From: a virus
Taxonomy: Duplodnaviria; Heunggongvirae; Uroviricota; Caudoviricetes
Virus record (IMG/VR): IMGVR_UViG_2541047694_000003
Span: 1 to 41,023 of that record
Strand: one strand, 5' to 3'
DNA length: 41,023 nucleotides
Part shown: piece by piece, positions 27,144-31,195 of the stretch
Numbering within the stretch: position 1 is the first letter of the stretch
How the letters are laid out: every line of letters starts with the position of its first letter
Made by a program: the position numbers and the translations under genes
The notes under the pieces: generated by a model
What the model was told of the DNA's origin: nothing
What the model saw: the letters and a program-made list of their open reading frames with translations, nothing else
The model's database searches: none

Positions 27144-28831
27144 TCAGGCACCGTGACATTTTTTGTACTTTATTCCCGAGCCACAGGGGCATTGTTCATT
27201 CCGGCCGACCGCACCAAAAACTTCAGTTAATTTAGTCTTTGCTGCTTTATGGGCAAGCTGTACGATGTAATTTGATTGATTTTGGATTTCTTGACGCTGT
27301 ACACCTGTGAGGCCTTCGATATAGGGAGCAAGGCGCTGCATTTCGACATCAGCTGCTTTATGCTGACCCGATAGTGCCAATATGACTGCGTACTGGCTTC
27401 GAACCTGAATCAGTCGGTGTACTAGACCTGCCTCATTGACAACCGGCAGGACATGTTGCTCCATGACTTCCTTGGCACCGTCGTAATCCTTTATGGCAAC
27501 AAACTCATCCGCCAGATCTTGGCCCACCCTAACCATGGATTCCGGGGCCATGGCCAGATTGTAGAACTTCATCGAATGAATACGCAGTAATGGTGACAGT
27601 TTTCCCTGCGCATCACGAATTCTGGCCAGCAACTCCAGAGCATCAGCCATATGTTTAAAGTGTTCCTGCATATTTTCGGAATGATTAATAGTTTTCCATA
27701 ATGCGTCGGCGTTTTTTCCTATGACATCAGCAGGTGTGATACCAAATAAAGAATAGTACCCTTGTATAACATTACAGCTTAATGTTTCAGCATCCTTGAG
27801 TTTTTTTAATCTCCAGAGTGCAATGGCATGGTTGTAGTCAAAGATGCGTTTATGTTCTTCATCTGGGAGTTGGGGGCGGACTTCCTGTGCCAGCTTTTGA
27901 ACTTCTCGTGCATCATTGCTTTCTGCCGAAAATAACATTCGTTTCATTGCATAGGCCATCTCTTCTTGATAGCCGAACTTGTGCTCCGCAAGTAAAGCTC
28001 CCATGATGTTTAACCTCTGAGCAATGTGGTCGGATATTCCGTCTTTAAGCTCAACGAAAACAAGGCCATCCAATGCCCAGAATTTATGAACAGGTCCCAA
28101 TAAGTCCGATGTTGCAGCACGCTCCAAGCTTGCAAGAATGTCGACCGTCACGCCCATCTCATAAAACATTTCTTGGCCTGAGAGTTCGATCAACGTCGTG
28201 ACATCATTGAGCTTAATATAAAGTTGAGTCAACAACGATAACCGTTTTGTATTGCGGGTATTATGAAGACTTTCAACTAAAAGGTCTTTCAGCGCTAGTA
28301 GCGCTTTGTTCGATATACCCTGATCCATCAGTTCCAGATGTTGCAGTCCTAGCCCCCTGACAGCATCATGTACCTTCAGGGTCTGGTTTCCATAAATTTC
28401 AATAGTGCCAGTAGCGCGCATTTTCCTAATTAAAGAAGCCGCACTGCTTGGTGAAATGTTCAGCGAATTGATTAGGAGCGTAGAAATCTCTTCGCGACTC
28501 AGCCCTACGTCAGAGAGACTGAACAATGCCAGCGCGCTCTGAAGTAGTGATTCAAATCCCTGAAATACACGTGACAGAATAATTTCTTGGGCGGTTTCCG
28601 CAGTATGGGTTTGTTGCTGGAGTTCAGCACACAGAGCATCGACACTACGCTCATAATCAGAAACGGCGATTTTTGCGGCGCTCTCTACATACAGGGGAAG
28701 ACCACCAGTGTAAGCCCGTAGCTGCTCGTATCCCATAGCGGTGGCAAATCCTCCGATATCGTTTACAACGACAGCTACCGTATCGAGATTCCATCCCTGC
28801 AGGCCCTCGCGCTGTAGCCCCGTCATGACCT
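27144..28831 (-). pseudogene. C-terminal part of a ~934-aa STAND-like NTPase gene split by IS911 (helical repeat region ending in a SEC-C zinc motif)
   Basis: 560 codons ending ...NEQCPCGSGIKYKKCHGA; reading frame continuous with 30082..31195 once the IS and one CCT copy are removed. Confidence 0.7.
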
Positions 28832-28861
28832 TGAAGTGGTCAACAAAAACTGGCCACCGAG

Positions 28862-29680
28862 TTAGAGTTTTTTCCAGTATCGATTTTCCGATTCGTTTGG
28901 TGGTAACCCACCATTATATTCGTGCGGTCTTAGTGCGCTGTAATATCCAACGATATAGTCCGTTATTGCGTGAGCTGCATCGCTGAAGCTTACATAGCCC
29001 GTCGCCGGCACCCATTCGTTCTTCAGACTCCTGAAGAAGCGCTCCATTGGGCTGTTATCCCAGCAGTTTCCACGCCGACTCATACTCTGCCTGATCCGGT
29101 ATCTCCACAGTAACTGCCGGAACTGCCTGCTCGTATAATGACTGCCTTGATCGCTGTGGAACATCACCCCGACGGGCTTACCACGGGTTTCCCATGCCAT
29201 TTCCAGTGCTTTCATGGTAAGCCTGCTGTCCGGCGAGAACGACATGGCCCAGCCCACTGGTTTTCTTGCGAACAGGTCGAGAACAACGGCGAGGTACGCC
29301 CAGCGCTTACCCGTCCAGATATAGGTCACATCACCGCACCACACCTGATTTGGCTCGGTCACGGCGAACTGCCGTTCAAGGTAGTTAGGGATAGCAACAT
29401 GTTCATGACCACCACGTTTATACCGGTAAGTCGGCTGCTGACAGCTGACCAGCCCCAGCTCTTTCATGAGTCTGCCAGCAAGCCAGCGCCCCATCTGGTA
29501 GCCTCTCTGGGTTGCCATTGTGGCGATGCTTCTTGCTCCGGCAGAGCCGTGGCTGATGCCATGCAGTTCAAGTACCTGGCTGCGTAATACAGCCCGTCTG
29601 CCGTCTGGCTTTTCAGGACGGTTTTTCCAGTATTTGTAGCTGCTGCGATGGACCCCGAACACATGGCAGAGAGTGGCCAC
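28862..29680 (-). CDS. IS3-family transposase OrfB (DDE catalytic domain), expressed as OrfAB by -1 frameshift
   Basis: 272-aa ORF; slippery AAAAAAG at 29752..29758 near the orfA 3' end. Confidence 0.85.
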
Positions 29681-29706
29681 AGGATAACGCGCCCTGAGTT
29701 TCCCGA

Positions 29707-30009
29707 TTATCGAGAACTGTTCAGGGAGTCTGACATCAAGAGCGCGGTAGCCTTTTTTAATATTTCATTTTCCATTTCAATACGTTGTAGCTTTTTCCTG
29801 AGCTCACGGATTTCAATTTGTTCCGGGGTAATAGGGGAGGCTTTTGGTGTTTTTCCCTGCCGCTCATCACGTAATTGTTTCACCCATCGCGTCATTGTGG
29901 AAAGGCCGACATCCATAGCGCTGGCTGCATCTGCCACGGTGTAATTCTGGTCAACGACCAGTTGAGCGGATTCGCGTTTAAACTCTGCGCTGAAATTTCT
30001 TTTTTTCAT
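29707..30009 (-). CDS. IS3-family transposase OrfA (HTH)
   Basis: [53 protein letters not shown]..., matches IS911 OrfA as recalled. Confidence 0.85.
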
Positions 30010-30081
30010 TATGGCACCTGTGTTGTTCTGAGGTGAGCATATCACCTCTGTTCAGGTGGCCAAATTCAGTAAACCACTTCA

Positions 30082-31195
30082 CCTCCAGTTCGCGAACGTT
30101 TTCGTGAGGCTGGCACAACAGCACAAAACGAATATGTGTAGTTGCATTCAGAACATCCCGTAGATTTTCCGCAGGTACACGATGGGCGTTATCCAGAACC
30201 AGCACCAAGGTGGTACCCTGCTCTTTCAGGTAGGTATCAAAACTCCTAAGAGCCTCAAAACCACTGGCACCGGGGAGCAAAATCCTGCGCAAACCGTCTT
30301 GGTCACGGGCTGTAAATCTAGCAGCCATCTCGCGCACCAGCGTACTGGCCAGAGCTGGACCGGGAAGATCACCGGTGTCGTAATAAGCACAAAGTGCAGT
30401 GGAGTGTAATGCGGCCTGTGCGGCCCAAGCTGTCTTGCCTGCACCTGAGAGTCCACAAAGGATACGGATCCGCTCACCAGATGTGAGAGAAGGTTCTTCG
30501 TTTTGTGGGCGGTACAGTGCTGGTGGTGCAGGAAAGTCCTGTAGCTGAACGATCAACTGTTCAAATAGTTCAGTAAGTTCCTCCGTGAAAAACGTATGTT
30601 GTCCATTGGTATCGCCTCCGGTGGCGGCAAGCTGAACCAACCCTGCTAACTTCCAAATCAAGGATTCTGGGGACAATAGTGAAAATTTCAGCTTTTCTGC
30701 TTCTGCGATACACCATGTGGCCGCATCAGCCAGAGTACTCCATGCGGGCGGAAGTGCCGGATGACGTCCAGCTGTCGACTGGGGCCAGACAATAAGAACA
30801 TCAGAAGGAAGCTTTTTATCGTCAATCATCTTCTGAAGCAGCGGTCCAGGCGCCTGGTTTACAATAATCACAAAAGAAGCCACCCCTTCGCGGTTTGCCG
30901 AAGTATGCTCATTTCTGAGCTTTACAAATCGCTCCAGAGCCCCCGACACATCGTTGGGCATAATAGGCTTTGAACGGGTTTTAACCTGAATGTAGAGACG
31001 TTCCTGTTTGGATTTCAGCTCAATATCCTCATCAAGCTCGACAGTTACTGAGTCCATAGCAGCCCTCTGCGCCAAAAGTAAGCAGCCTACAGCGTAAAGA
31101 TGCTGGTAAAGGAACCCCCGGTGTACCGCTTCGATACGCACCAACTGCACAGGATCCAGTACGTCCAGATTTTGTTTGTTTTCACTTCCCCACAT
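30082..31195 (-). pseudogene. N-terminal part of the IS-disrupted STAND-like NTPase gene (nuclease-like N-domain plus P-loop)
   Basis: 371 gene-derived codons (the 34 further codons of tracked ORF 29978..31195 are IS read-through); Walker A GLSGAGKT, Walker B-like LVLVLDNAH; N-terminal ...VELDEDIELKSKQERLYIQVK... PD-(D/E)xK-like pattern; AAGGAAT SD. Confidence 0.7.

Follow-up and report, generated by a model that had tools for sequence, protein, structure and literature searches.

The 41,023-nucleotide stretch of viral DNA analyzed here as a whole (IMG/VR record IMGVR_UViG_2541047694_000003, hereafter the window) represents a lambdoid prophage of Escherichia coli, and its minus strand carries a gene for a STAND-type NTPase that is split by an insertion sequence (IS). 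Two minus-strand open reading frames (ORFs), 29978..31195 (405 amino acids) and 27144..28826 (560 amino acids), lie on either side of two transposase ORFs, which belong to a 1250-bp element at 28832..30081 (minus strand). The element begins with TGAAGTGG and ends with CCACTTCA, has TG...CA ends and imperfect terminal inverted repeats, and is flanked by two copies of the target-site duplication CCT, at 28829..28831 and 30082..30084 (no strand assigned). When the IS and one CCT were excised in silico, 31195..30085 joined 28831..27144 to give a single 2799-nt ORF, which reads ...HENVRELEV and then MTGLQREGLQGW... across the junction and encodes 932 amino acids and a stop (933 codons). The 5' part of the gene (30085..31195, minus strand) holds codons 1-371 minus one base and encodes a Cap4-type nuclease, a linker and a nucleotide-binding domain, and the 3' part (27144..28831, minus strand) holds codons 372-932 and the stop and encodes helical and winged-helix domains, a TPR-like sensor and a SEC-C tail. 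The IS therefore sits between codons 371 and 372 (after gene nt 1114), exactly at the end of the nucleotide-binding domain. A preliminary description of this locus, made from the letters of the DNA, had placed the IS and its CCT duplication here and had joined the two halves in frame as one gene; both claims agree with the window sequence and with the repaired ORF, whose product is the public protein WP_001566781.1, and its size of about 934 codons (~934 amino acids) needs correction.

Apart from the insertion the two gene halves are unchanged, the target-site duplication shows no mismatch, and other copies of the IS have an identical sequence, implying that the insertion is recent, as the preliminary description had also proposed. 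The 5' ORF of the window runs on into the IS and stops at 29978, and the resulting 405-residue read-through product (WP_021515283.1 / EQN61850.1) was found on four public contigs. Moreover, OZ040996.1 is 100% identical to window 24144..34195, both junctions included. Because the read-through product and the junctions recur in public assemblies, the insertion in the window is natural. It parts the nuclease and the P-loop from the winged-helix domain, the sensor and the tail that regulated assembly would need, and the receptor is therefore non-functional in this strain. Losses of this kind, caused by an IS, are commonplace. Scanning for promoters and terminators around the gene gave scores no better than those of shuffled sequence.

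The preliminary description had called the element IS911. For its naming, we ran megablast against 5,426 complete E. coli genomes, where the element is 99.8-100% identical to copies annotated as ISEc52 and 94.1-94.2% identical to full-length copies annotated as IS911. By ISfinder convention, elements below about 95% DNA identity receive different names. The element is therefore ISEc52, as it is also called in the PGAP annotation of identical copies, and its ~94% identity makes it a sister element of IS911 rather than IS911 proper. The likeness of the two is otherwise close, including the length of 1250 bp, the TG...CA ends, the imperfect repeats, the 3-bp duplication, the A6G programmed-frameshift site (29752..29758, minus strand) and the 100-residue OrfA, encoded by orfA at 29707..30009 (minus strand) and matching Pfam HTH_Tnp_1. 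The orfB frame (28862..29680, minus strand) matches the rve family. The element shows the features of the IS3 family, namely a size of ~1.2-1.5 kb, TG...CA repeats, a 3-bp duplication, a -1 frameshift between orfA and orfB and a DDE (rve) transposase.

Intact alleles and recurrent disruption in E. coli

The repaired DNA matched 16 complete E. coli genomes at ≥99.5% identity, and in 15 of these the gene is one uninterrupted 2799-nt coding sequence, annotated as 'SEC-C metal-binding domain-containing protein' (WP_001566781.1). Three of the 15 intact genes, among them those of E. coli EC13 and CB7453, are 100% identical in DNA to the repaired ORF, and the other 12 are 99.5-99.7% identical. The exact repaired protein is present on 223 public contigs, so that the uninterrupted alleles which the preliminary description had proposed to look for do exist. 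In EC13, the intact gene occupies the same place as in the window, between a DUF977 gene, itself 3' of the replication genes, and hokD of a lambdoid prophage.

Two further broken alleles were found in prophages that match that of the window. The prophage of AHB10 (NZ_OZ546984.1) shares about 32 kb of flanking sequence with the window at 100% identity and carries the same ISEc52 in the same orientation (20588..21837 of locus L001) after gene nt 587 (codon ~195), with a TAC duplication. This point corresponds to ~30609/30612 in the window and lies 527 bp further upstream in the gene than the window's insertion. In GCA_964045155.1, which is 100% identical to the window's prophage where compared (a 7.2-kb locus), the window's insertion is accompanied by a 1298-bp deletion (window 27534..28831) that starts exactly at the IS end and takes out codons ~372-804; this deletion is IS-adjacent erosion of an already broken gene. 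From the insertion at another site in AHB10 and the IS-adjacent deletion in the third isolate, we conclude that the disruption is recurrent: in near-identical prophages the gene took at least two independent hits and was eroded afterwards. The end of a second ISEc52 copy lies at 1..155 of the window (plus strand), in the tail-fibre region and inverted relative to the copy in the STAND gene, and is a possible donor for local transposition. The repeated disruption could reflect either local hopping from this nearby copy or selection against the gene (discussed below).

In AHB10, the stfP gene next to the second ISEc52 copy is annotated as partial. The frameshift-split alleles of CP169408 and CP169410 were set aside as candidate lesions because adjoining genes are fragmented as well, and these and other 'split' alleles are probably indel or assembly errors for the same reason.

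Domains, fold and conservation of the repaired protein

From the repaired ORF, whose parts all lie on the minus strand, we assigned the following regions. Residues ~15-200 (30596..31153) form a Cap4/DUF4297-type PD-(D/E)xK nuclease domain, with the catalytic block E53-D55-D57-E59...Q70-x-K72 (30980..31039) contained in VELDEDIELK...IQVK (residues 52-72). After a linker, the nucleotide-binding domain (residues ~240-372) carries the Walker A motif GLSGAGKT (residues 248-255; 30431..30454) and the Walker B strand VLVLDN (residues 331-336; 30188..30205), which is part of LVLVLDNAH (residues 330-338). Residues ~373-540 (28323..28826) comprise a helical (ARC1-like) and a winged-helix (ARC2-like) domain, with a GxP motif (G414-L-P416) and an MHD-like motif (V-H525-D526) that were placed by their position in the structural model and not by residue-level structural superposition. 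An all-helical TPR-like sensor (residues ~541-909; 27216..28322) follows, and the protein ends in a SEC-C zinc-binding tail (residues 912-932; 27147..27209) with CPCGSGIKYKKCHG at residues 918-931.

Profile searches support these assignments to different degrees. The Pfam SEC-C model (PF02810) matches residues 914-931 at 38.8 bits (cut-off 20.4) and AAA_22 matches residues 239-364 at 34.8 bits (cut-off 27). The match to Cap4_nuclease (PF14130) is marginal, covering residues 25-77 at 27.1 bits (cut-off 26.2) and positions 7-63 of the 200 in the model, and that to AAA_16 (residues 242-345, 21.5 bits) is weak, being below its cut-off of 32.6. The PADLOC matches of the protein are confined to the LmuA N-terminus and the SEC-C tails of some E2 and PDC-S12 models. 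NCBIfam and PHROGs hold no model for the family; the tail was matched, together with a weak DUF4297 match in NCBIfam. In a PDB sequence search, the tail aligned with the SecA C-terminal peptides 1sx0 and 1ozb (E about 1e-5 to 3e-5).

For the fold comparison, we used an AlphaFold2 model of P0001, which is 99% identical to the repaired protein, computed with 48 homologues (mean pLDDT 81.5). The top Foldseek match in the PDB is the archaeal STAND and TPR protein 6mfv (E=2.3e-14), and SeAvs3 bound to terminase (8dgc) was matched with E=4.7e-14 over 1229 columns; next in rank were MalT and then a series of plant NLR NB-ARC domains. Region by region, the structural match scores of the STAND module are 25.4 with MalT (368 residues), 21.8 with PH0952, 19.9 with NRC2 and 19.1 with Apaf-1, those of the C-terminal region are 20.3 with the TPR domain of LGN and 17-19 with Rap proteins, and that of the N-terminal domain is 12.4 with LmuA (178 residues). 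The protein thus has the structural features of STAND proteins, with a P-loop containing Walker A and B motifs, the order of nucleotide-binding, helical and winged-helix domains, the GxP motif and the MHD-like histidine, and a C-terminal repeat sensor. Likewise, its N-terminal domain has acidic residues and an (E/Q)xK motif on the core beta-strands of a restriction-endonuclease-like fold, as in Cap4.

We examined how far these features are kept among relatives. A word-indexed search returned 934 of these, and the best 120 of the 934 are almost all 927-944 amino acids long and come from Enterobacterales, Vibrio, Shewanella, Aeromonas, Pseudomonas and beyond. With the C-terminal half of the protein as query, HMMER found 493 clusters among 1.84 billion representatives, and the full-length clusters among the 150 listed are nearly all 880-960 amino acids long, with the match starting at residues 365-390. 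In a sample of 53 representatives at 29-46% identity, the invariant columns include D57, Q70 and K72 of the nuclease, G251, G253 and K254 of Walker A, D335 of Walker B, and P416, and E53, D55, E59, N336, G414 and H525 are conserved in ≥90%. Domain models detected Cap4 in 38 of the 53 (best E=1.8e-8), AAA_22 in 44 and SEC-C in 35. The preliminary description had read a PD-(D/E)xK-like pattern, a P-loop NTPase core, a long helical C-terminal region and a terminal SEC-C motif from the sequence; every motif it quoted is present in the repaired ORF at the residues given above, and the four regions correspond to the Cap4/LmuA-type nuclease, the STAND module with its invariant Walker residues and fold matches, the TPR-like sensor and the Pfam-supported tail.

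In one distant relative, P0242, a C-terminal extension (residues 913-1009) matches the first 100 positions of the PADLOC model PD-T7-1 (E=2e-20). We rejected this extension as a feature of the family; it is probably a read-through or a fusion with an adjacent defense gene.

Spread of the family and its genomic neighbors

A scan with one genome per species gave 210 loci, which are distributed over Gamma-, Beta- and Alphaproteobacteria, Desulfobacteria, Sporomusa and a cyanobacterial metagenome-assembled genome. The E. coli, Pseudomonas and Desulfobacula proteins are 69-73% identical to one another, pointing to horizontal transfer. We clustered the ORFs lying up to 5 kb from the gene at 85 loci and found no conserved partner gene; the best cluster, present in 16 loci, is a ~151-residue ORF without a Pfam match, located ~85 bp downstream on the opposite strand and belonging mostly to one alphaproteobacterial-dominated branch (L045, L046, L051, L053, L055, L058, L065, L069 and L075 are among these loci). 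The same branch matches residues 13-896 of the query only, with the SEC-C tail outside the match. The family is a single-gene, patchily distributed cargo gene.

Defense genes, namely those of Gabija, Lamassu, AbiH and Mokosh, often adjoin family members. In Vibrio cholerae, the gene lies 3' of Gabija, AbiH and a PIN protein with an integrase nearby, in Pseudomonas an AbiH gene follows 61 bp downstream of the STAND gene, and an AbiH-like gene is found near eight of the 85 loci. The strong PADLOC matches among 138 non-redundant nearest neighbors include AbiH (5), LmuB (3), GajB (3) and LmuA (2), with further ones to PDC-S50, PDC-S51, DRT, mad2, IetS and MkoA. In the window, the STAND gene has the DUF977 gene upstream and hokD downstream, and it fills a slot between the prophage replication genes and hokD. 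Related lambdoid prophages hold quite different genes between DUF977 and hokD, which marks this interval as a variable cargo slot. The lambdoid slot, the V. cholerae island and the PADLOC neighbors together give the association with mobile elements and defense islands that is expected of Avs genes.

The remaining features of the prophage can be described briefly. The hokD-type type I toxin gene (HOK_GEF; 26711..26923, minus strand), directly downstream of the STAND gene, is the right-hand anchor of the slot and is kept in related prophages. Just past it, two overlapping cargo genes (24788..26544, minus strand) encode a 204-residue protein with no Pfam match (phrog_35814) and a 381-residue protein with HTH_3 and Peptidase_M78 domains (ImmA/IrrE-like); in related prophages this position is empty or occupied by rem, and the two genes may be another accessory module. 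Three prophage tRNA genes, Arg(tct), Arg(tcg) and one with a CAT anticodon that is called Met by ARAGORN and Ile by PGAP, lie 3' of the Q antiterminator (21834..22083, minus strand), and a DUF2441 gene between the lysis cassette and the HNH/terminase genes (19047..19655, minus strand) looks like a small moron. At 38965..40015 and 40043..40132, the window has the prophage integrase next to tRNA-Ser(cga). The annotation of AHB10, whose sequence here is 100% identical, marks this integrase as frameshifted, and the frameshift and the tail-fibre IS together suggest that the prophage is defective. A yersiniabactin island lies just beyond mtfA.

A candidate Avs-like defense gene

Taken together, these data lead us to read the locus as a single-gene, Avs-like antiviral STAND system that was carried as cargo by a lambdoid prophage and was knocked out by a recent ISEc52 insertion, and we hold this reading, which relies on analogy with characterized Avs proteins, at odds of roughly three to one. 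The protein is an uncharacterized member of a well-known class: its structure is that of a STAND protein, and in agreement with the architectural definition of Avs it combines effector, STAND module and sensor in one chain, has an effector of an immune type and lacks a conserved partner gene. The STAND/Avs-type prophage defense gene of the preliminary description is thus upheld in its architecture, its folds and its context, and the defense role is probable.

Several observations weigh against this reading. Neither the single protein nor a 48-sequence profile found a relative in the PDB by sequence, except for the ~20-residue SEC-C tail, so that the classification rests on fold comparison. The PADLOC 2.0 AVAST/Avs models matched neither the E. 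coli protein (E≤1) nor the 53 relatives (E≤1e-3). Architectures in the C-terminal-half scan were uniform, and we saw no exchange of N-terminal effectors such as characterizes several Avs families. The Walker B motif is D-N, with N336 in ≥90% of the relatives, instead of the usual STAND D-D/E, which hints at slow or absent ATP hydrolysis, and ATP turnover may consequently differ from that of the studied Avs proteins. The family is rare in phage collections, with two distant INPHARED records, 11 IMG/VR contigs (for the most part prophage alleles of E. coli) and no PHROG family, and the neighbor counts given above are raw and without a matched background control. Literature searches by accession and by domain combination found no paper on the protein in the library searched, and no experiment ties phage resistance to the family.

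We propose that the protein, as an Avs system, acts in the manner of SeAvs3 and SeAvs7. The proposal rests on the order of domains that it shares with them, on its folds and on the catalytic residues that are invariant in its family. In SeAvs3 and SeAvs7, a phage protein bound to the TPR sensor relieves autoinhibition, ATP drives tetramerization through the STAND module, and the Cap4 domains cut DNA (PMC13581612). By analogy, the E. coli protein would rest as an ADP-bound monomer in which the sensor and the NTPase keep the nuclease inactive. A conserved protein of the infecting phage would bind the TPR sensor and open the module, ATP would replace ADP, and the NTPase domains would then oligomerize. 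The assembled nuclease domains would cut DNA indiscriminately, leading to abortive infection, which would protect the lysogen population and hence the prophage.

The broken alleles might be explained by selection. Here the receptor would be toxic in this lineage, for example when triggered by a protein of the resident prophage on induction, and ISEc52 knock-outs of a costly or self-reactive immune gene would sweep repeatedly. This explanation is tentative. It accounts for the three distinct lesions found in prophages that show 100% identity in every part compared, namely the window's IS after nt 1114 (AGG/CCT), that of AHB10 after nt 587 (TAC), and the insertion with the deletion of 27534..28831 in GCA_964045155.1. 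However, the second ISEc52 copy lies ~27 kb away in the same prophage and local hopping could give two hits without selection, the intact allele is far commoner (223 contigs against 4-6, and 15 of the 16 complete genomes), and the other 'split' alleles add no lesions if they are the indel errors that their fragmented neighboring genes suggest.

Less likely is a defense-type STAND protein whose SEC-C tail recruits an obligatory host factor (SecB, the ribosome or the membrane), much as the host factor EF-Tu becomes part of the Avs7 complex (PMC13581612). In favor of this, the tail is a true zinc motif of the SecA type (E=3e-5 with the SecA peptides, of which 1ozb was solved bound to SecB), it is kept in 35 of the 53 diverse relatives, and the same tail ends the PADLOC defense models E2, E1-E2 and PDC-S12. 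Yet it is absent from about one third of the relatives, including whole alphaproteobacterial branches matched to residues 13-896 only, and it was modeled with low confidence (pLDDT 46-66). A bolder combination appears more improbable still. In it, the protein would represent a distinct Avs-type family that has no name yet, its SecA-like zinc tail would fasten the receptor to one of these host machines, which would itself take part in sensing as the second repurposed host factor after EF-Tu in Avs7, and selection against autoimmunity would lie behind the repeated ISEc52 knock-out in a single clinical lineage of E. coli. The least credible of all is a non-immune STAND protein sharing only the fold, such as a MalT-like regulator or a DNA-repair or maintenance factor of mobile elements, since the protein has no DNA-binding output domain, its invariant Cap4/LmuA-type active site is of a kind known only from immune effectors, its distribution is patchy and horizontally transferred, and it lies in a prophage cargo slot with defense genes as frequent neighbors of the family.

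Returning to the Avs-like reading, the architecture, the prophage location and the IS-mediated loss are all expected of defense genes, and current ideas are not overturned; the recurrent independent hits are a modestly interesting detail at the population level. If the repaired gene protects against phage, the known pattern-recognition receptors of bacteria would gain a compact 932-residue Cap4-STAND-TPR protein, whose source, a lambdoid prophage of E. coli, is tractable and which can be compared with about 500 diverse relatives. As the SEC-C tail recurs on the defense-associated E2, E1-E2, PDC-S12 and lactococcal Rugutis, the protein would be a convenient place to test what the tail does in immunity, and the three lesions in near-identical prophages form a small natural experiment on the cost of such a receptor.

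Finally, we compared the protein with known systems. LmuA (Lamassu) and Cap4 (CBASS) are DUF4297 nuclease effectors of the same type, but the E. coli protein has no LmuB, SMC partner or SAVED domain, and activation of its nuclease would come instead from the fused STAND module; it does not belong to Lamassu, as no conserved neighbor, LmuB and the SMC-like LmuC included, occurs in the 85 loci. MalT, PH0952, Apaf-1 and the plant NB-ARC proteins (the AP-ATPase-MalT branch) share the STAND module, but their outputs are regulatory or of the CARD/CC/TIR kind instead of a nuclease, and they are not mobile cargo. By sequence, the protein is not a member of Avs1-5 (AVAST types I-V), for the PADLOC models did not match it and the SeAvs3, EcAvs4 and Avs5 chains were not matched in the PDB sequence searches with either the protein or the profile. 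Lee et al. 2026 extended the Avs proteins to Avs6-24, with ≥90 sensor clusters and 589 clades (PMC13581612); the ~370-residue sensor of the E. coli protein is under the 400-residue cut-off of that sensor clustering, and the main text makes no mention of SEC-C or zinc. The closest counterparts are SeAvs3 (PDB 8DGC; Gao et al. 2022) and SeAvs7 (Lee et al. 2026), which have the same order of a Cap4-type nuclease, a STAND module and an alpha-helical repeat sensor and, like the E. coli protein, are each encoded by a single gene on mobile elements or in defense islands. They have no sequence relationship to it detectable by phmmer or hmmsearch against the PDB, SeAvs3 is about 2000 amino acids long against 932, and the SEC-C tail and the D-N Walker B motif set the E. 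coli protein apart from both.

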